IMG/VR virus record: IMGVR_UViG_2537561689_000015
Reading direction: 5' to 3' (one strand)
From: a virus
Taxonomy: Duplodnaviria > Heunggongvirae > Uroviricota > Caudoviricetes
DNA length: 24,759 nt
Position numbers and translations under genes: made by a program. Numbering within the stretch: the stretch's first letter is position 1; each line of letters opens with the position of its first letter. Below are positions 1,419-24,202 of the stretch, piece by piece. The notes below the pieces were generated by a model that saw only the letters and a program-made list of their open reading frames with translations, was not told where the DNA came from and did no database searches.

Positions 1419-3890
1419 TTAAAAATCAGCCTGACTCGGGATCAGTTTTTGCCAGATTGCTGAAACGTATTTTGCCTGGTAACGGGCGTCATCAAGTGCA
1501 TTATGGCGCTCACCTTCGAATGGAATAGCCGTTCTGGCATCGAAGTCTATGGCTTTCCCCAGCTCAACGATTGTGCGTACATCGCGATCGTTGTAGTAAC
1601 GCCACGGGCAGGGGATCCCCTGCCGTTCGTATGAACGGCGCAAAATCGTGTTGTCGAAGTTGGCTCCATTTCCCCAGACCTGAACAAAAAATTCGCCGGA
1701 GTTTTCGTCGATAAATTCCCGCAATTGTAACAGTGCATCATCTAACGGGATTTCATCGGTCATAATAGCAGATTGCGCTTCGCGTGATTGCTTAAGCCAC
1801 CATTTAATGGTGTCCCGATCAATGACTCCGCCAGCAGTTTCCAGATCGATAGTCTTACTAAATTCCGGTCCCATATCTCCGGTTTGCGGATCGAAAAATA
1901 TTGCACCTATTGAGATGATCGGGGCATCGGGATTTTTTCCCATGGTTTCAAGGTCGATCATTAGATGGTCACACGTCCTGCTGGTGGATGTGATAACGCG
2001 ATGACCGTTCACCGTAATTAAGGGATCTGCCGTCTCGCCAGTTTCACTATCGCTGGCGTGATCCTGAGCGCTGCCAGCATTCTCCTTGTGTGGATGTTCA
2101 GCGCCTTCCATTTTCTCCGAATCGTCTTCCTGAACTTCAACCTGGTTCTTGTCATCGAATGTTTCCTGGTATGTTGCGTCGCCCATCACCGCGCCACAAT
2201 CAGGGCAGTTGCCGCCGCCGGTCTGGCCGCAGGCGGTGCAGATCTTTTCCGGTTCCTGTTGCACTACTGGTTCAGGTTGTTTCGTTTCTTGCTCGTTTTG
2301 TAACGCATTTGGGCTGTTTTGTTCCGCTTTCTGGCCGTTCTGTTCCGTTTCTTGCTGGTTCTGGTTCACAGAATCGCGGGTTTCCATCCCCTTAACCCAT
2401 TTCGGATCATTCGGGTCGCTAATCCCTTCAATAAATTCACCACGTGATGCAGCAAGCAACTTATCGGCGTCAGGCTGGCTGATATTGGCTGCCTGCATAA
2501 TTTTGTTTACTTCGTCAGCGGTAACTTTTACCGGTTCTGGCTGTGCGGTCGTGTCAGATGCACCAGTATTTTGTTGTGAACCTGAGTATGTACTGTTTTT
2601 GCGGGCGAAATATTCTTCTTTCGTGATTTCAGTAGCCCCGGCAGCCAGCGCCTTATCCAGACCAGAAAGTTTGTTTGCGCGACCGTATTTTTCGCCATCC
2701 TTGTCGGTGAAGAGGAAGTAGAACGGCCCCTCACGCTCTACAGATGGTTCGACTTCCACTTTGCATTCGGTTTTTTCGTTGTCCGGAATTGCCGTTTCCA
2801 CTGCATCAGTTTCTGGTACTGGCGACGAGAGAGTATCAGTTGCGATCTGATTTGTTCCTTCATCTTCAAACACGCCCTTTGTAGTCAGGTATTCAGTAAT
2901 GTATTTGTTCAGTACCACAGGGTCTTTGTGAATGTCGATCGGACGCTCACGGACAAGGCCAAAAATAGTCTGGCGGTCGTAGCGAAGGGCATCAGGCTGT
3001 TTGCGTATTGATGCTGAGATACGCTTCCAGTCTTCGCGGTCGTTGTTGATAACTTCATTTTTTGCCCAGCGATGGATGCTGCCGTCAATGTTTCCGGCAT
3101 CAATGTCACCAGGCCACAGAGCGTAGGCCAGTTCATCATCCAGTGTTTTCCATGTCTGCTTATATTCGCGACGAATGACTGCAGTGACAGGGGGGATATT
3201 TTCTGCTGAGTTTTCAGTGTGCTGTCGGTTGACTCTGGCGCGGGCGAGATCAACAGCAGACGTGTATTTTCCAGTCTCTTTGCGCTCTGCGTCCTGCCGT
3301 TTTTTCCAGTTACGTAATTCAGCCTGAATTTCGGGCCATTTGGCACCCGGATTACATTTGTGTTTAACCCATCCGATAGCGAACAGTTTGCGTTCCGGAT
3401 ACATAGCGTTAATTTCAGGCGTTTTCATCAGTGCTTCAACGATATGCCCGTCAAAGGTAGCAACGTCTTCCTGCAGTAATTCCTGCGCGTCAATCGCCAT
3501 ATCAACGGTGATGTTTTCACATGTACCGAACTTAACCAGGACCGCGTTCTGTACTTCAAGGGACAGCTTGTCAAAATTGACGTTCATCGGATCGGATTCT
3601 GGTTCGACCGGAATAAAGGAAGCGGATTCCTCATCCCAGCGGTTTTCCTGCATATATTCAGCATCCCAGGAATCGAGGGCAGGGCGGGGTATACCGGGTT
3701 TATCCTCGCAAACAAGAAATTTATAAGCGCAGTCCTGAGCAGCCGGATAATGTTCCAGGAATTGCCAGTGAAATTTTGCGCGGGCGCGACGTTCATCACC
3801 GGCTTCAATGGCAGTGGCTACAGCGACGGCACCTTCTTCCTTTATTGCCTGTTCGTCCGGAATAGCGGCGCAAATAAAGACTTTACTCAT
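1419..3890 (-). CDS. Large exonuclease-family protein with C-terminal DnaQ-like DEDDh 3'-5' exonuclease domain
   Basis: 823-aa ORF. C-terminal region carries the three exonuclease motifs DLETMG, WGNGANFD and HNALDDARYQAKY. The central part has a CxxC...CPDC zinc-ribbon-like motif and a Q/E-rich low-complexity stretch. Confidence 0.85.
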   Translation of the reverse strand: MSKVFICAAIPDEQAIKEEGAVAVATAIEAGDERRARAKFHWQFLEHYPAAQDCAYKFLVCEDKPGIPRPALDSWDAEYMQENRWDEESASFIPVEPESDPMNVNFDKLSLEVQNAVLVKFGTCENITVDMAIDAQELLQEDVATFDGHIVEALMKTPEINAMYPERKLFAIGWVKHKCNPGAKWPEIQAELRNWKKRQDAERKETGKYTSAVDLARARVNRQHTENSAENIPPVTAVIRREYKQTWKTLDDELAYALWPGDIDAGNIDGSIHRWAKNEVINNDREDWKRISASIRKQPDALRYDRQTIFGLVRERPIDIHKDPVVLNKYITEYLTTKGVFEDEGTNQIATDTLSSPVPETDAVETAIPDNEKTECKVEVEPSVEREGPFYFLFTDKDGEKYGRANKLSGLDKALAAGATEITKEEYFARKNSTYSGSQQNTGASDTTAQPEPVKVTADEVNKIMQAANISQPDADKLLAASRGEFIEGISDPNDPKWVKGMETRDSVNQNQQETEQNGQKAEQNSPNALQNEQETKQPEPVVQQEPEKICTACGQTGGGNCPDCGAVMGDATYQETFDDKNQVEVQEDDSEKMEGAEHPHKENAGSAQDHASDSETGETADPLITVNGHRVITSTSRTCDHLMIDLETMGKNPDAPIISIGAIFFDPQTGDMGPEFSKTIDLETAGGVIDRDTIKWWLKQSREAQSAIMTDEIPLDDALLQLREFIDENSGEFFVQVWGNGANFDNTILRRSYERQGIPCPWRYYNDRDVRTIVELGKAIDFDARTAIPFEGERHNALDDARYQAKYVSAIWQKLIPSQADF

Positions 3891-3969: not shown

Positions 3970-4173
3970 TTACGGCGCTGTTTTAAGTCCTGCCGGGATT
4001 TCGTTATTATCCATGTGAATAACTTTATCGACCGGATAGCAGTTACCGGGGATTTTTTGTTCTGCTGCGGCAGCCATGCATTCTTTCATTGAACCGTAAA
4101 TGTCAATAACCATGTCAACAGGCTCGCCAGTATTAAGAAAAACAGTCAGAGTGAGGGCAATAGCAGTATTCAT
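3970..4173 (-). CDS. Hypothetical small protein with N-terminal hydrophobic segment
   Basis: Start taken at the internal ATG at 4173, preceded by AAAGGA at good spacing (ORF track extends to 4227). Hydrophobic stretch AIALTLTVFL near the N-terminus. The start overlaps the stop of the upstream ORF as ATGA. Confidence 0.45.
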   Translation of the reverse strand: MNTAIALTLTVFLNTGEPVDMVIDIYGSMKECMAAAAEQKIPGNCYPVDKVIHMDNNEIPAGLKTAP

Positions 4174-5158: not shown

Positions 5159-5543
5159 TATCCACAGAGCCTAAAGTATGTGCATATGGATGTGCTATTG
5201 TGCGCCCTCGCAGATTTGCATCATTTTCTAAATTCACTGAACGAAACAGGGCATCAACAAGGCTCTGTACAATGCAAAGGCAATCGAAGACTGTCGCCGT
5301 TTCTGTTTTGATTGATGAAAGAACATGGCCATTCACGCAAACAGAAATTACCCGTTTATTAACATCGCTTTCCTGCTTTTGATTATCAGAACCATATAGC
5401 CCTGAAAAAGCATTGCGCACATTACGAACCATATTATCGATGGTTTCTTTTTTGGTGTATGCCGGGTCAATTTTCACCAGACTATCACCGAGTGTCGTTG
5501 CAGCAATTATCTGGATTTCTTTTGGTAAATCTTTAAATTCCAT
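5136..5543 (-). CDS. Hypothetical protein (135 aa)
   Basis: ATG preceded by ACGAGG. AT-rich, and the last gene of the leftward early gene chain. No recognisable motif. Confidence 0.6.
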   Translation of the reverse strand: MEFKDLPKEIQIIAATTLGDSLVKIDPAYTKKETIDNMVRNVRNAFSGLYGSDNQKQESDVNKRVISVCVNGHVLSSIKTETATVFDCLCIVQSLVDALFRSVNLENDANLRGRTIAHPYAHTLGSVDIKDPTNL

Positions 5544-5565
5544 TATTAGCCTCGTTGGTTAACCA

Positions 5566-5784
5566 TTAACGTGGGTATGTAATCATTCTGGCAATGCTTA
5601 ATGCCGCTGCTTTTTCCAGATTGGTGATATCCTGCTCCAGAGCGGACAGATTTTCAGCCTGCTTAGCCCTGGCTTCATTGGCCCATTTCAGGTCCTGCGC
5701 AGCCTTAATTTTCTGGTGCATCCACTCATAAAGTTCATCATCGGTATAGTCTGGCGCGATGATGACGGGTTCTCGTTTCTGCAT
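5566..5784 (-). CDS. Hypothetical coiled-coil protein (72 aa)
   Basis: ATG preceded by GCGAGGAA. Lies 22 bp upstream of the 135-aa gene on the same strand. Confidence 0.55.
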   Translation of the reverse strand: MQKREPVIIAPDYTDDELYEWMHQKIKAAQDLKWANEARAKQAENLSALEQDITNLEKAAALSIARMITYPR

Positions 5785-11322: not shown

Positions 11323-11533
11323 AAACGGTTTGCGGGGAAATCTTAGTTAAGTAGAATGACTGTGGGTGCTTGAGGCTATCTGTCTCAGGCATGAACACCA
11401 AAAGGCAGATAGAGAAAAGCCCCAGTTAACATTACGCGTCCTGCAAGACGCTTAACATTAATCTGAGGCTCAATCCATGCTGAACACATGTAGGTTAGCC
11501 TCTTACGTGCCGAAAGGCAAGGAGAAGCAGGCT

Positions 11534-11689
11534 ATGAAGCAGCAAAAGGCGATGTTAATCGCCCTTATCGTCATCTGTTTAACCGTCATAGTGACGGCAC
11601 TGGTAACGAGGAAAGACCTCTGCGAGGTACGAATCCGAACCGGCCAGACGGAGGTCGCTGTCTTCACAGCTTACGAACCTGAGGAGTAA
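11534..11689 (+). CDS. hok: Hok/Gef-family type I toxin (small membrane toxin)
   Basis: 51-aa product MKQQKAMLIALIVICLTVIVTALVTRKDLCEVRIRTGQTEVAVFTAYEPEE, which I recognise as Hok-family (closest in my memory to HokD/RelF). Strong AAGGAGAAG Shine-Dalgarno. An in-frame upstream extension from 11477 may be a Mok-like leader reading frame. Structured leader and a terminal hairpin as in hok mRNAs. Confidence 0.85.
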   Translation: MKQQKAMLIALIVICLTVIVTALVTRKDLCEVRIRTGQTEVAVFTAYEPEE

Positions 11690-17127: not shown

Positions 17128-17203
17128 GGCCCTTTAGCTCAGTGGTGAGAGCGAGCGACTCATAATCGCCAGGTCGCTGGTTCAAATCCAGCAAGGGCCA
17201 CCA
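17128..17203 (+). tRNA. tRNA with CAU anticodon (Ile2/lysidine-type or Met)
   Basis: Hand-folded cloverleaf: acceptor GGCCCTT/AAGGGCC, D-stem GCTC/GAGC, anticodon loop CTCATAA, T-loop TTCAAAT, 3' CCA encoded. Resembles the ileX/ileZ-type tRNA of E. coli. Confidence 0.85.
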
Positions 17204-17210
17204 TCACATA

Positions 17211-17287
17211 CCGCCATTAGCTCATCAGGATAGAGCGCCAGCCTTCGAAGCTGGTTGCGCGGGGTTCGAGTCCTCGATGGCGGTCCA
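17211..17287 (+). tRNA. tRNA-Arg (anticodon UCG)
   Basis: Hand-folded cloverleaf: acceptor CCGCCAT/ATGGCGG, anticodon stem CCAGC/GCTGG with loop CTTCGAA, T-loop TTCGAGT, CCA encoded. Confidence 0.8.
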
Positions 17288-17300
17288 TTATCTGTACCCT

Positions 17301-17377
17301 GCGTTGTTAGCTCAGCCGGACAGAGCAATTGCCTTCTAAGCAATCGGTCACTGGTTCGAATCCAGTACAACGCGCCA
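17301..17377 (+). tRNA. tRNA-Arg (anticodon UCU)
   Basis: Hand-folded cloverleaf: acceptor GCGTTGT/ACAACGC, anticodon stem ATTGC/GCAAT with loop CTTCTAA, T-loop TTCGAAT, CCA encoded. Confidence 0.8.
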
Positions 17378-17569
17378 CGCTTATTTTTCCAGGCTCGCTA
17401 CGGCGGGTCTTTTTCATATCCGCGTCACGTCAGGCGCACATCAAACAAACACAGAATCTTTCAGGGGGCGGGATAGTCAGTGTGACGTTCTCTGGGGGCC
17501 TGTCACTTCCGGGGATAGGTGTTTTTACGGGCTGCTGGTGGCCCTTTTTTATTTACAGGAGAAAGAAGT

Positions 17570-17962
17570 ATGTCTGAACCCTTATCCGGTTCCGGTACGG
17601 CTGCGGCGCTCGGCGGGGCGACGGTATTCGGGCTGTTTACCGGAATGGATTTCGGGATTGTGTTTGGCGCGTTCGCCGGGGCGTTATTTGTGGCAACGAT
17701 GCCACAGTCACTTTCAGTCTGGCGCGTGGTGGCACATTTTCTGGTGTCGTTTATTGTCGGCGTGCTGGGAGCGCGTGTGCTGTCAGCCTGGATTGCATCA
17801 AAAACAGGGTATGACGGTACATCAGCAGATGCGCTTTGCGCGGTGCTGGTCTCGGTGGTGTCGGTGAAGATTCTCTCGTTCATCCACCAGCAGGATATTG
17901 CATCGCTGGTGTCCGGTGTGTTCTCCCGCCTGCGGGGTGGAGGAGGCGGCAATGTTAAGTAA
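17570..17962 (+). CDS. Putative holin (multi-pass small membrane protein)
   Basis: Start taken at the ATG at 17570, preceded by AGGAGAAAG (track 17519). Several hydrophobic helices and a charged Gly-rich C-terminus. First gene of the lysis cassette, upstream of the endolysin. Confidence 0.65.
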   Translation: MSEPLSGSGTAAALGGATVFGLFTGMDFGIVFGAFAGALFVATMPQSLSVWRVVAHFLVSFIVGVLGARVLSAWIASKTGYDGTSADALCAVLVSVVSVKILSFIHQQDIASLVSGVFSRLRGGGGGNVK

Positions 17963-18227
17963 CCTTCCCGGATTGCTGAATGTGGCGTTATGCACGGTTA
18001 TCGTGCTGACGCTCTTTTTTTATCGTCGCCGTGATTCCAGACATAAACCGCTGGTGTCATGGCTGGCCTGGCTGCTGATGCTGCTGTATGCCTTTGCGCC
18101 CCTCAGCTATCTGTGTGGTCGCCCGTTAGCAACGGGCTGGCTGGAAGTGTTTTTTAATCTGCTGTTCTGCGTGCTGGTGATACGCGCACGCGGGAACGTC
18201 ACAAAAATCTTTCCATTGTTGAGGTGA
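17952..18227 (+). CDS. Second holin-like small membrane protein
   Basis: Start taken at the ATG at 17952, preceded by GGAGGAGG and overlapping the end of the first holin. Three hydrophobic segments. Lies between the holin and the endolysin. Confidence 0.55.
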   Translation: MLSNLPGLLNVALCTVIVLTLFFYRRRDSRHKPLVSWLAWLLMLLYAFAPLSYLCGRPLATGWLEVFFNLLFCVLVIRARGNVTKIFPLLR

Positions 18228-18229
18228 AT

Positions 18230-18607
18230 ATGCCGGGTAAATTCAGATTCAGCCGTCGCAGTGAAAAAAATCTGGAGGGTGTCAAACCTCAGCTGGTTGC
18301 TGTAGTTCGCCGTGCGCTGGAGCTGACGGAGGTTGATTTCGGTATTACGGAAGGCCTGCGCAGTAAGTATCGCCAGAAACAGCTGGTTGCGGAAGGGAAA
18401 AGCCAGACCATGAACAGCCGCCACCTGACCGGTGATGCGGTGGATGTTGTGGCCTACATCGGCAGCCAGGTGTCATGGGAGTGGCCTCTGTACGAGAAAA
18501 TCGCACAGGCATTTAAGCAGGCTGCCGCAGAGCTGGGGATCGCTATCGAATGGGGCGGGGACTGGAAAACGCTGAAAGACGGACCTCACTTTCAGCTGAA
18601 GCGATAA
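18230..18607 (+). CDS. Endolysin, peptidase M15-like (L-alanyl-D-glutamate peptidase type)
   Basis: Start taken at the ATG at 18230, preceded by GAGGTGA. Motif SRHLTGDAVDV and the overall size match zinc-peptidase M15 endolysins. Follows the holin genes. Confidence 0.8.
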   Translation: MPGKFRFSRRSEKNLEGVKPQLVAVVRRALELTEVDFGITEGLRSKYRQKQLVAEGKSQTMNSRHLTGDAVDVVAYIGSQVSWEWPLYEKIAQAFKQAAAELGIAIEWGGDWKTLKDGPHFQLKR

Positions 18608-18614
18608 GTAAAAC

Positions 18615-18655
18615 AAAACCCCGGCTGGGGGAACAGTCCGGGGTTTTTAGTTTTC
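18615..18655 (+). terminator. Rho-independent terminator after the endolysin
   Basis: AAAACCCCGG ... CCGGGGTTTTT stem with a following T-rich stretch. Confidence 0.55.
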
Positions 18656-18739
18656 ACGTCAAAGGGGAAATTGTGATTAGTGAGTACGGAGAAAATCCTC
18701 GTGGGAAAGTATAAAAGATTCTTTTTGAGGTTGTCCATT

Positions 18740-18853
18740 ATGAAAGGTATTGAAATGGAAACTCCCGCGAGCCTTGATTTGACAAGGGCTGCGGCCTTTG
18801 CAATTCGCCTTGTGGCGGTCGCTGTTCTGATTTGGGCTGTGCGTTGGTGGTGA
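18740..18853 (+). CDS. Possible small transmembrane peptide (37 aa)
   Basis: Hand translation MKGIEMETPASLDLTRAAAFAIRLVAVAVLIWAVRWW. Its stop overlaps the start of the following lipoprotein gene. Not in the ORF track. Confidence 0.3.
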   Translation: MKGIEMETPASLDLTRAAAFAIRLVAVAVLIWAVRWW

Positions 18854-18854
18854 T

Positions 18855-19037
18855 ATGGCGCGAAAACACTGGACACACAGAATGCCGCGAACGGCGGTGA
18901 AACGGGCACTGGTAGCGATACTGGTGCCTTTTTTATTGGTGGGGTGCGTCAGCCTGGATAAGGCGCGCCAGCTTTTCGATACCGCGTCTCAGGTCTGTGA
19001 AATTGTCGACGGTGTTCGGCAGTGTCTGCAGAACTGA
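18855..19037 (+). CDS. Putative lipoprotein (60 aa), possible spanin-like or Bor-like lysis accessory protein
   Basis: N-terminal signal with a lipobox-like LVGC sequence (MARKHWTHRMPRTAVKRALVAILVPFLLVGC). Located after the endolysin. Confidence 0.5.
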   Translation: MARKHWTHRMPRTAVKRALVAILVPFLLVGCVSLDKARQLFDTASQVCEIVDGVRQCLQN

Positions 19038-19208
19038 TCGCCTGTAAGAGCAGAATATTTTGCTGAAAAATGAAGGATGCGCCAGCGTCCGGTAAGCATG
19101 AAATTCTGTGTTTGTGGCTACTCAATAAAATAAATTCTTTCTGTCGCCGCGAATACTCAAATGTTGATCAGTGCCCGGTGCGGCGACGGGCTTCGATATC
19201 AGGAGACG

Positions 19209-19604
19209 ATGATGGAAAAAACAGAAAACAAACCGATTGTAATTGGTGCTGATGCTGCTCCGTTTAAGTTTGAGTTGTCTCAACTGGTGGAGATGCGTAT
19301 CAGTGATGAATGGGGTGAGGTTAAAGCCCGCGCGCAGTATGCGGATGGCGAAAACCAGTACTTGATCCACTACAAAGCAGCTGATGGTCGCGCCACGACG
19401 GAGTGGTTTGGTGAGTCAATGCTGGAAGCAACAGAAGATGATCGTCATCCGGGTTGTCCGGTATTTGCCGGTATGAAATTACCGGAAGGTGCAGTTGAAC
19501 TGCAGCCGGGTGAGGTGTTCGTAATGACAGACATCATTGATGGTAAACCGCAGTATTCGCGTATTGAAATGAATAGTAAGAGTGCTCGCCTGATTCGTGA
19601 GTAA
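19209..19604 (+). CDS. Hypothetical protein (131 aa)
   Basis: ATG preceded by AGGAGA (track 19161). No recognisable motif. Followed immediately by a 14-bp-stem hairpin. Confidence 0.6.
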   Translation: MMEKTENKPIVIGADAAPFKFELSQLVEMRISDEWGEVKARAQYADGENQYLIHYKAADGRATTEWFGESMLEATEDDRHPGCPVFAGMKLPEGAVELQPGEVFVMTDIIDGKPQYSRIEMNSKSARLIRE

Positions 19605-20196: not shown

Positions 20197-20724
20197 ATGT
20201 CAAATGTGAGCGGGATCGGTGATGCTTATTACTGGAGTGTTTTTAAAATCGCCGAGGCCTTTGGGCTTCACCGGGACACAGTAAAAAAACGGCTCCTCGC
20301 GGCCAACACTCCTGTGGCTGCGACTGTCAGGGGGAACCCCGTTTACGCCCTGCAGCATGTCGGGCCTGCCCTGTTTAGTGTGAAGCATGAGGCAGCAGAC
20401 TCTGTTCATGATCCATCCCGTATGGAGCCGAAAGAGAGAAAGGACTGGTACCAGTCTGAAAATGAAAGGATCAAGCTGGAAAAGGAGCAGCGAAAACTCA
20501 TCCCCGTTGATGAAGTAGTCATCGTCTATTCGTCCATGAGAAAGGCTGTCGTCCAGGTTCTGGAGACAATTCCGGATGTTCTTGAACGCGATTGCGCCCT
20601 GACTCCTCAGGCCGTCGGCGTTGTACAGCAGGCCATTGATGACCTGCGATACACTCTTCAGGAAAAATCCTACGAGGCTTGTGCTGCTGAAATAATTCCT
20701 GATGAGGAAGGAGAGAGTCTCTAG
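20197..20724 (+). CDS. Terminase small subunit (Nu1-like)
   Basis: Start taken at the ATG at 20197, preceded by GGAG (track 20185). N-terminal HTH-like segment and a central WYQSENERIKLEKEQ region resembling lambda Nu1 architecture. Directly upstream of the large terminase subunit. Confidence 0.75.
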   Translation: MSNVSGIGDAYYWSVFKIAEAFGLHRDTVKKRLLAANTPVAATVRGNPVYALQHVGPALFSVKHEAADSVHDPSRMEPKERKDWYQSENERIKLEKEQRKLIPVDEVVIVYSSMRKAVVQVLETIPDVLERDCALTPQAVGVVQQAIDDLRYTLQEKSYEACAAEIIPDEEGESL

Positions 20725-20732
20725 GAGGAATA

Positions 20733-21560
20733 ATGGGTTTTTCATCAGCCCGAAATTTGGGAAGGGACATATCGGCAGGATTTTCCCCACCACGTCGCAT
20801 GCCGATTTCGGAGGCTGTTAAAAAATTCATGCGTGTTCCCAAGGGGGCTGGTAACTCGGTGCCATGGGATCCTGAACTGACACCCTACATCATTGAGCCC
20901 ATGAACTGCCTGGCATCGCGTGAATACGATGCGGTGATTTTTGTTGGTCCTGCGCGAACAGGGAAGACCATTGGTCTGATCGATGGATGGATTGTCTATA
21001 CCATCGTTTGCGATCCTTCGGACATGCTCGTTGTGCAGATGACCGAAGATAAGGCCCGCGAGCATTCTAAAAAGCGCCTCGACAGAACGTTCAGAAGCAG
21101 TGCGGCGGTAAAGAAAAGAATGAGTCCACGTCGTAACGACAATAATGTCCATGATAAGACGTTCAGGGATGGCTCGTTCCTTAAAATTGGTTGGCCCTCG
21201 GTCAACATTATGTCGTCGTCGGATTACCGGTTTGTCGCCTTAACCGATTACGACCGTTTTCCGGAGAATATCGACAGCGAGGGTGATGGTTTCTCCCTGG
21301 CCTCAAAACGTACCACCACATTTATGTCCGCCGGGATGACTCTGGTGGAGAGCTCGCCGGGACGTGACATCTGCGACAGCAAATGGCGACGTAAGTCGCC
21401 TCATGAAGCGCCACCGACGACTGGTATTCTTTCCCTTTACAATCGTGGTGACCGCCGCCGCTGGTACTGGCCATGTCCGCACTGCGGTGAATATTTTCAG
21501 CCAGCCATGGATGCCATGACCGGCTACCGTAATGAACCGGATCCCTTTAAAGCCAGGTAA
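20733..21560 (+). pseudogene. Terminase large subunit, N-terminal fragment truncated by IS insertion
   Basis: ATG preceded by AGGAGG. P-loop-like FVGPARTGKT and a CPHCGE zinc motif. The frame ends at a TAA created by the first bases of the IS element (GTAAGCG). Confidence 0.8.
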
Positions 21561-21586: not shown

Positions 21587-23158
21587 TTACTGAGAGCTCA
21601 GATCAACTTTCCAGGGCAACAGATCGCGTACCCGGTTTGCCGGCCAGTCCTGGATATGTTCAATGACGTAACGCAGCCACTTTTCTGGCTCCACATTGTT
21701 CAGACGGCATGTGCCGATCAGCGAGTACAACACCGCCGCATGTTCACCACCGCTGTCGGAACCCGCGAACATCCAGTTTTTCCGGCCTACGGCCACTCCC
21801 CGTAAGGCGTTCTCTGCGATGTTGTTGTCGATTTCCACCCAGCCATTACTGCAGTACACGTTCAGTGCATCCCACTGTTTCAGCAGGTATGCGAACGCTT
21901 TTGCCGTATCTGAGTGACGCGACAGTGTTTTCATCTGTTGCTGTATCCAGTCATACAGTGACTGCATCAGTGGCGCGGCTCTGGCTTTTCTTGCCGCCAG
22001 ACGCTGTTCTGCTGAACAGCACCGGACCTCTGCCTCGATGGCATACAGTTCACCGATACGCTGCAGGGCTTCCGTGGTGATGTAGGTGGGCGCTCTTGCA
22101 TGCACATCGTGGATTTTTCTCCGGGCATGAGCCATACACGCGGCTTCCGTTATTCTGCCGGATTCGTATAACGCCCGGTAACCACCGTAAGCATCGGCCT
22201 GAAGCACACCGCTGTAACCGGCCAGGTGATTTTGTGGATGGATACCTTTCCGGTCCGGACTGTACGCGAACCAGACCGCCGGGGGCATCTGTGAACCGGC
22301 GTTACGGTCATCACGGACGTAGACCCACAGCCGGGCTGTCCGGGTTTTACCGCTGCCCGGCTCCTGGACCGGGACGGGGATATCATCAGCATGGACTTTA
22401 CCGGGCATCAGCACATACTGGCGCAGGACGTCATACAGCGGCTCCAGTAGTTCAGCAACGGCACCTGTCCAGCGCCCCAGTGTGGCACGGCTCAGCTCCA
22501 CACCCTGACGGCGGTATATCTCTGACTGGCGGTATAACGGCAGATGGTCTGCATATTTCCCGGTGACGACATGGGCCAGGAGCCCCGCTCCGGCATAACT
22601 GCGTGCAATGGGTTTTGAAGGTACTGGTGCCTGCACGATATGGTCGCACCGACAACAGGCCAGTTTCGGACGTTGTGTTTCGATAACCTTAAAGGCGCTG
22701 CTGATAAGCTCCAGTTGCTCTGACACATCACATCCCAGAGAACTGAGTTCACCACCACAGGCAGGACAGCATTCCTCTTCCGGCCGGATAACCCGGGTTT
22801 CACGGGAAAGTGAGGCCGGTAACGGTTTACGGGCTGAAGACTGGCGCAGGGCGGATGGCAGTACCGGGTCATATTGCTCACCCAGCGTTTCCGCCATTTC
22901 TTCCTGAAGTGCGCTGATTCGCTCCTGTGCTTCCTGTATCTGCCGTTCGGTTTTTGCACGAAGTTTTTCTGAGCTTTTACCGAACTGCATACGTTGCAGT
23001 TTCGCAACCAGCGCCTTCAGCCGGTTGATTTCGGAAGCATAAGCCGCCACCCGCTGTGAGAGCAGGCGGTTGTATTCAGCCATCTGGCGTATGGTGTCCT
23101 GTTGCGTCTGCAACAGTGCCCGCAGGCGGGCGTTCTCATGAGCAAGTGAGGTGTCCAT
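21587..23158 (-). CDS. tnpC: IS66-family transposase (TnpC/Orf3)
   Basis: 523 aa with an N-terminal coiled-coil or leucine-zipper region and a Cys-rich zinc motif (CPACGG...CCRC), the typical size and layout for IS66 transposases. Confidence 0.9.
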
Positions 23159-23177
23159 ATCCTCACTTTACAACGGG

Positions 23178-23525
23178 TTATATGCGGATTCCAGCGCGTT
23201 CCGTTCGTTTCGGGTGCTTCCAGTTGATACCTTCAAGAAGCATGGATAACTGAGCCGGAGTAAGGTGCACCTTGCCGTCACGGGTGACTGGCCAGACGAA
23301 GCGGCCCCGCTCCAGGCGTTTGGTGAAGAGGCACAGTCCGTCACTGTCAGCCCACAACACTTTTATCTGGTCACCCCGGCGTCCGCGGAAGATGAACAGG
23401 TGTCCGGAGAACGGGTCATCCTTCAGGACGTTCTGAACTTTTGATGCCAGGCCGTTAAAGCCATTTCGCATATCGGTGATACCTGCAACCAGCCAGATAC
23501 GCGAACCTGCAGGGAGAGATATCAT
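23178..23525 (-). CDS. tnpB: IS66-family accessory protein TnpB (Orf2)
   Basis: 115 aa, between the Orf1 and transposase genes. The sequence MISLPAGSRIWLVAGITDMRNGFNGL is characteristic of IS66 Orf2. Confidence 0.9.
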   Translation of the reverse strand: MISLPAGSRIWLVAGITDMRNGFNGLASKVQNVLKDDPFSGHLFIFRGRRGDQIKVLWADSDGLCLFTKRLERGRFVWPVTRDGKVHLTPAQLSMLLEGINWKHPKRTERAGIRI

Positions 23526-24202
23526 CAGTGGCTGCTCCCTTTTATTTCGCGGATAAGTGTCTGTAATAACGCCGGCGTCAGTTTACCTTTAAGCCTGAGA
23601 GTTCCGGCCGGCAGAACCAGCTCACAACACAGACTGTCGGACGGTGTATTTATCTGCTCTGGTTCCTGTGCGGGGGCCGGGATTTTATTATCCGGCTCCG
23701 GCGTTAACGTCACGGGAAGCAGTGCCGGCATATTTTTTCCGGAAGGCAGCAGGCCACCTTTCCGGTATTGATGGCGCCAGTTGAAGAGCAGGTTATCGTT
23801 GATTCCGTTTTCCCGGGCGATCTGCGCCACACAGGCTCCGGGCTGCAGTGACTGCTCCACTAAGGCGATTTTAAACTCATAAGGGAAGTTGGGCCGCCGG
23901 GGACGTTTTTTTACCACGGGGGCTTCGGATATAACGGTGCTTTCAGGACGTACGACTGGTACCGTGGAAAATTGTCCGTAAAGGCAGGCATCAAGTTCCT
24001 GCTCCGACATGCCTGCGGGCAAAGGCCACGAAAGGCCAGCTCTCCGAAAGCGCACGAACATACTACAAACAGTTGATTTTGGTACACCCAGGCGACGCCC
24101 GGCCACAACCCGGGGTAAATGTTCTTCAAAGTGAAGACGTAAAGCTTCAGTGATCCAGGTCCGGTGTTTCATACGATAGTGTCCATTAAAAATGATGGAC
24201 AT
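23525..24202 (-). CDS. tnpA: IS66-family accessory protein TnpA (Orf1); start uncertain
   Basis: Track ORF of 225 aa; the true start may be internal (for example the ATG at 24172). HTH-like region. Its stop overlaps the TnpB start. Confidence 0.75.
   Translation of the reverse strand: MSIIFNGHYRMKHRTWITEALRLHFEEHLPRVVAGRRLGVPKSTVCSMFVRFRRAGLSWPLPAGMSEQELDACLYGQFSTVPVVRPESTVISEAPVVKKRPRRPNFPYEFKIALVEQSLQPGACVAQIARENGINDNLLFNWRHQYRKGGLLPSGKNMPALLPVTLTPEPDNKIPAPAQEPEQINTPSDSLCCELVLPAGTLRLKGKLTPALLQTLIREIKGSSH

Follow-up and report, generated by a model that had tools for sequence, protein, structure and literature searches.

An orphan lipoprotein in the Rz/Rz1 slot of a phiP27-type prophage lysis cassette

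The virus record IMGVR_UViG_2537561689_000015 (Caudoviricetes), a stretch of 24,759 nucleotides that was analysed at its full length and is called the window here, is a lambdoid prophage of enterotoxigenic Escherichia coli (ETEC) carrying a late lysis cassette of the type found in the Shiga toxin 2e (Stx2e) phage phiP27. Most of this cassette is ordinary and consists of annotated holins and an endolysin. Its last gene encodes a prolipoprotein of 60 amino acids (18855–19037, + strand; phrog_7528) which stands where Rz/Rz1 is normally found, and the view that this lipoprotein is an orphan occupant of the spanin slot is well supported. On balance we lean towards the reading that it serves the outer membrane step of lysis, a role that we infer from genomic context only; the mechanism is speculative. 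The question addressed is how phages without recognisable spanins pass the outer membrane, and the 2018 census of Kongari et al. (PMC6139136) classed about 13% of the phages infecting Gram-negative hosts as spanin-less. If the lipoprotein were a stand-alone disruptor, phrog_7528 would add a further class of outer membrane lysis protein to the two-component spanins, the unimolecular spanins and the disruptins.

Position of the lipoprotein gene

Homologous loci were compared in two sets. The main set comprises 118 distinct loci in which the lipoprotein is intact and sufficient upstream sequence is available, and the second was sampled by holin-like gene 1 only. A Phage_holin_8/Phage_holin_3_7 pair lies 5' of the lipoprotein gene in 117 of the 118 loci, and the endolysin gene in between is of the M15 type in 70 loci and of the GH108 type in 48. 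Of 127 loci, only 85 carry the gene that lies downstream in the window (phrog_1935). Judged by gene order, the lipoprotein belongs to the lysis operon and not to the packaging region.

In the window a small membrane open reading frame (ORF; 18701–18853, + strand) lies between the endolysin and lipoprotein genes. This ORF is missing from 26 of the 118 loci and from 28 of 60 in the holin-sampled set, where the lipoprotein gene directly follows the endolysin gene; phiP27 does not have it either. In the minimal M15 cassettes (about 26 of 80 loci) the lipoprotein ATG stands 18 nucleotides after the endolysin stop codon and is preceded by an AGGTG Shine-Dalgarno sequence. Other junctions are an ATGA overlap with a GH108 endolysin gene (locus L086), a distance of 4 nucleotides from another small membrane gene, TM44, and an overlap with an ant-like gene (locus L170). 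Whichever gene lies before it, the lipoprotein gene is coupled to that gene in translation.

The lipoprotein gene occupies the Rz/Rz1 slot to the nucleotide. The junction TGGTGGTGATATG is found 5' of the lipoprotein gene in the window and 5' of Rz in the Stx phage GER2, and after the junction ending in CGTTGGTGGTGATATG the next gene is the lipoprotein in the window and Rz in GER2. Among 67 holin-sampled cassettes, 60 end in the lipoprotein and three in canonical Rz/Rz1; two carry LT-IIa genes and another two are degraded. The lipoprotein and Rz/Rz1 are not found together in any of them. The three cassettes ending in Rz have holins that are 95% identical, the same M15 endolysin and an Rz gene with embedded Rz1. 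The same holin pair is also found in more distant cassettes of Trabulsiella, Enterobacter and Buttiauxella, and there the endolysin is followed by pairs of inner membrane (i-) and outer membrane (o-) spanins that PHROGs confirmed. Altogether, in about 180 loci, the intact lipoprotein (136 loci) and Rz or another i-spanin (47 loci) never occur together. Both are present in only two loci (GER2, which is L088, and L167), and there the lipoprotein gene is a frameshifted, stop-containing remnant 3' of Rz. This decayed remnant is a footprint of past cassette exchange; in GER2 it covers positions 3988–4170 of the locus and includes the decayed end of the membrane ORF as well as the lipoprotein gene, 3' of an intact Rz/Rz1. 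The original prediction, which was made from the letters of the window, had put the lipoprotein in the position of the spanins, and both the shared junction and the alternation with Rz/Rz1 bear this out.

Searches for a hidden spanin partner gave negative results. Nothing in the window matches Rz, a second lipobox ORF is absent, and no + strand ORF of at least 25 amino acids overlaps the lipoprotein gene as an embedded or overlapping second frame of the Rz/Rz1 kind. Minimal cassettes have no type II membrane ORF 3' of the lipoprotein gene, which was looked for by analogy with the ChiY–ChiZ gene order. A promoter scan found no + strand promoter-like site 5' of the small genes.

The same position could also hold cargo. 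The lipoprotein would then be a moron with a role other than lysis, such as superinfection exclusion, Bor-like serum resistance or another lysogenic conversion, and these phages would manage without an outer membrane disruptor. Phage lipoproteins with exclusion roles are known (T5 Llp, Cor), and shaken cultures in the laboratory lyse without the help of spanins. In the prophage Rac-SA53 (locus L168, 4798–5938) and in two further loci (L325, L326) LT-IIa genes come right after the GH108 endolysin gene of the same holin-pair cassette, and these prophages have neither the lipoprotein nor Rz within the stretches examined. A terminator-like hairpin separates the endolysin gene from the two small genes of the window as well, but this hairpin belongs to the membrane ORF module and not to the lipoprotein. 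Minimal cassettes, with their 18-nucleotide gap or ATGA overlap, leave no room for a promoter, and the scan of the window found none upstream. The lipoprotein alternates strictly with Rz/Rz1 at an identical junction and has decayed where Rz is present. It also matches no Bor or other family in Pfam or NCBIfam. Taken together, we regard the cargo explanation as rather unlikely.

Sequence, selection and distribution of the lipoprotein

The lipoprotein has a predicted type II signal peptide resembling that of o-spanins, with the lipobox LVGC, its cysteine at position 31 and a residue other than aspartate at +2 (Val here, Val or Ala across the family), as expected for sorting to the outer membrane. 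The h-region and lipobox are invariant (LVAILVPFLLVGC). The only hydrophobic segment is that of the signal peptide (residues 13–37), and there is none at the C-terminus. The mature part has 30 residues, of which two are near-invariant cysteines; it is moderately amphipathic (hydrophobic moment 0.35) with a net charge of about −1. A disruptin-like antimicrobial peptide was considered for it and rejected, since it is not cationic and its hydrophobic moment does not exceed a moderate value.

Against Pfam, NCBIfam, PHROGs and the sequences of the PDB the lipoprotein matched only a PHROG of unknown function (phrog_7528, 1.5e-35). At E <= 0.1 Pfam and NCBIfam gave only a chance-level match to QseG (E 0.089, 12 bits against a cut-off of 234 bits). 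Bor-like identity, which had been suggested for this gene, thus finds no match in either database, and nor does membership of another non-lysis family. A profile search of 1.84 billion representative proteins returned 22 clusters at 50% identity, with intact members of about 44–71 amino acids. All members are short except obvious fusions and frameshifts, and no relative is long enough to tell more about the family. The family occurs in Escherichia, Salmonella, Citrobacter and Cronobacter, and 352 of 5426 complete E. coli genomes carry the lipoprotein.

Both small ORFs are real genes under purifying selection. For the lipoprotein, 78 distinct nucleotide versions give a synonymous divergence of 0.197 and a non-synonymous divergence of 0.050, with a pooled dN/dS of 0.22; for the membrane ORF, dN/dS over 17 pooled nucleotide versions is 0.13–0.15. 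These ratios are pooled pairwise counts from related sequences and are indicative, not exact. The value for the membrane ORF does not fit an untranslated reading frame. Within the lipoprotein dN/dS is 0.30 in the n-region, 0.18 in the h-region and 0.18 in the mature part. The n-region has 18 residues (18855–18908), a charge of +6 and two histidines, and its sequence RKHWTHRxPRTAAKW is conserved from E. coli to Cronobacter; n-regions of ordinary lipoproteins are far shorter and more variable. The start chosen for this gene by PGAP is an internal methionine (51 amino acids), and the n-region is missed. Such unusual conservation of the signal peptide suggests that it may have a role beyond targeting, either in the precursor or as the cleaved peptide.

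A second alternative is that the lipoprotein acts as a true o-spanin together with something other than a dedicated i-spanin. One of the holin-family proteins or a host envelope protein might take this part, or else the lipoprotein's own precursor, which if left unprocessed would have type II topology and expose the same 29-residue helix to the periplasm. The lipoprotein is tied almost exclusively to one holin pair, whereas Rz/Rz1 occurs with either holin type, and the invariant h-region, the long conserved basic n-region and the low dN/dS (0.18–0.30) are in line with a second function of the precursor. By analogy, the two conserved cysteines could form intermolecular disulfides; lambda Rz1 forms such bonds. 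Neither holin-like protein, however, has a predicted periplasmic domain of more than about 13 residues, and the periplasmic cysteine of holin-like protein 2 is not conserved in a Salmonella homologue that keeps the lipoprotein. A reach of 30–60 residues is too little for a normal periplasm, and joint inheritance may be all that links the lipoprotein to the holin pair. We consider a non-dedicated partner to be quite improbable.

The small membrane ORF

According to the original prediction an ORF of 37 amino acids overlapped the start of the lipoprotein gene, and the two small genes might form one module. There is no overlap. The stop codon of the membrane ORF ends at 18853 and the ATG of the lipoprotein gene is at 18855, leaving a gap of 1 nucleotide. 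The length also needs correction, as the start is most likely the GTG at 18701, giving 50 amino acids, and not the ATG at 18740 that gives 37 and is also the choice of PGAP. At 18701 each of the 129 homologues compared has GTG, ATG or TTG, and GGAG lies 9 nucleotides 5' of this codon. Related phrog_1115 proteins have ATG at the homologous position and share the N-terminal motif KYKxxxLRL with this family. The match to phrog_4493 is stronger for the long form (9e-24) than for the 37-residue form (1.8e-16). A start at GTG 18680 (57 amino acids) was rejected, the codon being GTA in one homologue.

The first 15 residues of the protein carry a charge of +5, and its single transmembrane helix (residues 27–49) ends at most 1 residue from the C-terminus. 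It is therefore predicted to be tail-anchored with the N-terminus inside. With its only hydrophobic helix at the C-terminus no periplasmic domain is left, and essentially nothing of it would be periplasmic. Searches against Pfam, NCBIfam, PHROGs and the PDB sequences matched only PHROGs of unknown function.

The hairpin between the endolysin gene and this ORF (18610–18654, + strand) is GC-rich, is followed by a U-run and was detected both by a scan and by RNA folding. Its folding energy is −24.9 kcal/mol (z = −3.9), and none of 200 shuffled sequences was equally stable. Analogous hairpins are found at the same place in GER2, where Rz follows, and in a Cronobacter locus (L085). Inside a late operon such a hairpin may act as a terminator, serve as a processing site or mark the edge of a module.

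The same membrane ORF lies directly 5' of canonical Rz/Rz1 in GER2, which has a class II holin/lysozyme cassette. The gene after a related pair, TM60 and TM44 (phrog_1115 and phrog_4906), is Rz in 41 loci and the lipoprotein in 35, and relatives of the membrane ORF precede Rz in 41 of 80 loci. In locus L307 the gene before Rz is another tail-anchored ORF, which has 45 amino acids and ends in IRWW. Tiny membrane proteins of at least three unrelated families (phrog_4493/1115, phrog_4906 and the 45-residue IRWW ORF) recur just 5' of the outer membrane lysis gene in lambdoid cassettes; examples lie at 3862–3996 in L085, 5334–5468 in L310 and 4966–5103 in L307. Since the membrane ORF and the hairpin are also found next to Rz, they make up an independent small module between the endolysin and the outer membrane gene. 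From its distribution and predicted topology we take the membrane ORF to be a separate mobile accessory gene, neither an i-spanin nor the partner of the lipoprotein. Together with the hairpin it makes an accessory module inserted in many lambdoid cassettes, and it may affect lysis timing.

These observations bear on a third explanation, a minimal two-component spanin with the membrane peptide as inner subunit and the lipoprotein as outer subunit. Adjacency of the two genes in the window, the presence of a TM57/TM60-type gene in 92 of the 118 lipoprotein loci and purifying selection on both would be expected of such a pair. Its inner subunit would, however, be missing from phiP27 and from all the loci without the membrane ORF, and would stand in other cassettes directly 5' of a complete Rz/Rz1. 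The same two facts speak against the two small genes being one module. The basic N-terminus predicts the inside orientation with almost nothing in the periplasm, and even with the N-terminus outside the combined periplasmic length would be below 60 residues. We find this explanation very improbable indeed. The original prediction had itself judged the membrane peptide too short for a normal inner membrane spanin; the C-terminal helix and basic N-terminus agree that it is unfit for that task.

The published spanin assignment of phiP27

A homologue of the lipoprotein has been catalogued before. In the tables of Kongari et al. (2018) phiP27 appears with a two-component spanin of the 'separated' kind, with the o-spanin at 20706–20861 and the i-spanin at 20348–20542. 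The pair is the shortest in their census, with 62 periplasmic residues in a range of combined lengths of 62–300, and both subunits are family singletons (PMC6139136). The o-spanin of this pair is the homologue of the window lipoprotein, 92% identical and taken from an internal methionine; the cassettes of phiP27 and the window share the order holin, holin, M15 endolysin. The i-spanin is a 64-residue ORF with a TTG start and no family match, which is absent from the window and from all other architectures. It lies antisense to a minus-strand ORF of 90 amino acids that matches phrog_36812 over its full length (5e-20). In our phiP27 locus (L001) the i-spanin candidate is at 5242–5436 and the lipoprotein gene, which is unannotated in the record, at 5524–5679. 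The annotated phiP27 gene L32 runs across the lipoprotein gene in the wrong frame.

On this sequence evidence the published i-spanin of phiP27 looks spurious. The two-component assignment then probably fails, which makes the lipoprotein an orphan. The phiP27 homologue was already labelled as an o-spanin, but it probably has no valid i-spanin partner. The phrog_7528 lipoprotein belongs with the 31 genomes of the census in which a lipoprotein was found without an i-spanin candidate (PMC6139136). A search of the literature on the lysis of Stx2k and LT-II prophages added nothing.

Proposed role of the lipoprotein

We propose the following course of events in the window cassette. One or both holin-family proteins, translationally coupled, would open the inner membrane at a set time, as their families and topology suggest. 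The hole would release the soluble cytoplasmic L-Ala-D-Glu endopeptidase, and the murein would be destroyed. The lipoprotein would be exported, receive its lipid at Cys31 and, having Val at +2, go to the outer membrane, where it would accumulate as a moderately amphipathic helical peptide of 30 residues with two conserved cysteines. It would stand in for Rz/Rz1 without a phage-encoded periplasm-spanning inner membrane subunit, and it could not act as a classical membrane-bridging spanin because there is no such subunit. An anchored helix of 30 residues cannot bridge the periplasm, which excludes fusion by bridging unless an unrecognised partner exists. Speculatively, the peptide might destabilise the outer membrane locally once the wall is gone, in a way resembling colicin lysis proteins and entericidin B. 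The more specific proposal, that phrog_7528 is a stand-alone outer membrane disruptor with no inner membrane subunit and that its unusually conserved signal peptide might play a part, as that of colicin lysis proteins does, is a possible but tentative one.

Several points weigh against a lysis role. The loci were selected by similarity and come mostly from closely related prophages of Enterobacteriaceae, with many near-duplicates. Decay of the lipoprotein in the presence of Rz probably represents a single evolutionary event. The interval between the lysis and terminase genes is a hot spot for cargo, as LT-IIa in the same slot indicates, and position alone is therefore no proof of function. An anchored peptide of 30 residues with a charge of about −1 is without obvious membrane-disrupting chemistry, and AlphaFold2 (AF2) models the protein as a single long helix with low confidence (pLDDT 64.7). 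Near-exclusive linkage to one holin pair could mean that an unrecognised partner is needed.

Holins and endolysin

The remaining genes of the cassette fit the lysis functions that had been read from the window, by matches in Pfam, PHROGs and the PDB. Holin-like gene 1 (17570–17962, + strand; 130 amino acids) matches Phage_holin_8 (PF16931; 3.3e-23, 82.6 bits, Pfam curated cut-off 26.4) and the PHROG holin family phrog_198 (2.8e-42). Holin-like gene 2 (17952–18227, + strand; 91 amino acids) matches Phage_holin_3_7 (PF05449; 1.2e-21, 76.9 bits, curated cut-off 25.4) and phrog_217 (1.5e-38). By these scores both predicted holins belong to their respective families. The two genes overlap by 11 nucleotides. 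Hydropathy predicts 3–4 hydrophobic membrane segments in the first protein and 3 in the second, in agreement with the description of two overlapping small multi-pass genes; for these proteins a topology prediction had been proposed as a check. In holin-like protein 2 a basic first loop and a basic C-terminus predict, from charge and hydropathy, the N-out/C-in orientation.

The endolysin (18230–18607, + strand; 125 amino acids) matches Peptidase_M15_4 (7.5e-13, 49.3 bits, cut-off 25) and phrog_465 (3.6e-75). In the PDB it matches ChiX (5opz, 6.6e-44), 8q2g (2.7e-43) and the T5 endolysin (2mxz, 7.8e-24), and it is thus nearer to Serratia ChiX, a peptidoglycan hydrolase of type 10 secretion, than to the endolysin of phage T5. 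The zinc-ligand motif SxHxxGxAxD...H is present: SRHLTGDAVD and DGPHFQL align with ChiX, and H65, D72 and H120 are identical. We take it from these alignments to be an M15 L-Ala-D-Glu endopeptidase of the ChiX/T5 type. No signal peptide or signal-anchor-release (SAR) segment was found in it, and its maximum 15-residue hydropathy (KD15) is 0.77; for the GH108 endolysin found in its place in sister cassettes the maximum is 0.58, and this enzyme has no hydrophobic segment either. Since neither type has an N-terminal hydrophobic segment, both are predicted to be soluble and not SAR endolysins, which makes the pinholin-type system that had been considered for the holin pair unlikely. The cassette is predicted to be a canonical system of holin and soluble endolysin rather than a pinholin/SAR system.

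Prophage context

The window is 100% identical over this region to several ETEC chromosomes, and its late region is 93% identical to that of phiP27. All five small ORFs of the cassette were confirmed on the + strand at the positions first read. Upstream of these five co-oriented genes lie a Q-like gene, a DNA methylase gene and three tRNA genes, and the cassette would be read from a Q-dependent late transcript. An Rfam search gave no match inside the cassette. The tRNA genes (17128–17570; anticodons CAT, TCG and TCT, the ileZ/argN/argO set of Stx phages) lie directly 5' of the first holin-like gene. In phiP27 the stx2e A and B genes are placed between the same tRNAs and the same holin. As stx2e is absent from this place here, the window is a toxin-less relative of the Stx2e phage late region.

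A conserved ORF at 19161–19604 (phrog_1935, 3.6e-69), without a hydrophobic segment, follows the lipoprotein gene and is found 3' of it in about two thirds of loci; its PGAP start is an internal methionine (130 amino acids). Further downstream the gene for the terminase large subunit gpA (20733–21560) is cut after the ATPase domain by an IS66-family element (21587–24202, minus strand) that encodes TnpC (523 amino acids), TnpB (115 amino acids) and a helix-turn-helix transposase ORF. With gpA interrupted this prophage copy is unable to package DNA, though the lysis cassette itself is undamaged. In NZ_CP025847 the terminase is uninterrupted in a prophage that is identical in other respects. In the early/late junction region a sok antitoxin RNA lies at 11364–11539 (Rfam RF01794, 118.9 bits, E 7e-27), and a hokD-type toxin gene is annotated at the corresponding place in an identical ETEC prophage; the two form a type I toxin–antitoxin module.

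The cassette is the release machinery of toxin-converting prophages, among them the Stx2e phage phiP27, an Stx2k phage and ETEC prophages. LT-II genes can replace the lipoprotein in the slot of ETEC prophages, and the efficiency of the outer membrane step bears on the release of toxin and phage. The system offers a clean test case in E. coli, with a gene of 60 codons and with sister cassettes, naturally swapped to Rz/Rz1, as controls. Our analysis also corrects a published spanin assignment and the mis-framed phiP27 annotation L32.

Comparison with known systems

Like lambda Rz/Rz1, the window has the gene of an outer membrane lipoprotein at the distal end of its cassette, in a slot that is identical to the nucleotide and where the two alternate among homologous cassettes. 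Unlike two-component spanins it has no i-spanin: no cognate gene was found in the window or in minimal cassettes, and the adjacent ORF has a C-terminal transmembrane domain. The mature lipoprotein is predicted to be helical and is not proline-rich, and 30 residues without a partner domain fall short of bridging the periplasm. Nor is there detectable homology to recognised o-spanin families. Matches to PHROG spanins reach only E 0.015–0.08 and are confined to the signal peptide, and an hhalign comparison with the phrog_1275-type o-spanins of sister cassettes gave a probability of 1.9% and nothing beyond the lipobox. The unimolecular spanin gp11 of phage T1 is likewise a single gene in the spanin position with an N-terminal lipobox. 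The window lipoprotein is far too short and has no C-terminal transmembrane domain, and so it does not qualify as a protein of this class.

Lambda Bor, too, is a phage lipoprotein whose gene lies close to where the lysis region ends. It has no sequence match to the window lipoprotein, whose gene is co-oriented with, and translationally coupled to, the endolysin gene; Bor has about 97 amino acids and is encoded on the opposite strand under its own promoter. Colicin lysis proteins (bacteriocin release proteins, BRP) and entericidin B are made as precursors of about 45–60 amino acids, have an LVGC-type lipobox, mature to lipopeptides of about 30 residues and are encoded by the last gene of a release operon. 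The window lipoprotein differs from them in being phage-borne and in having no Pfam match to Lysis_col or entericidin at E <= 0.1, but it is like them in size and lipobox.

The ChiWXYZ system of Serratia marcescens (type 10 secretion) has one holin and, beside the lipoprotein ChiY, a type II membrane partner, ChiZ (PMC4259817). The window differs in having two holin-family genes and no equivalent of ChiZ. The order of holin, L-Ala-D-Glu endopeptidase and outer membrane lipoprotein is common to both, and the endolysin is close to ChiX. This likeness shows how near these prophage cassettes stand to domesticated secretion systems.

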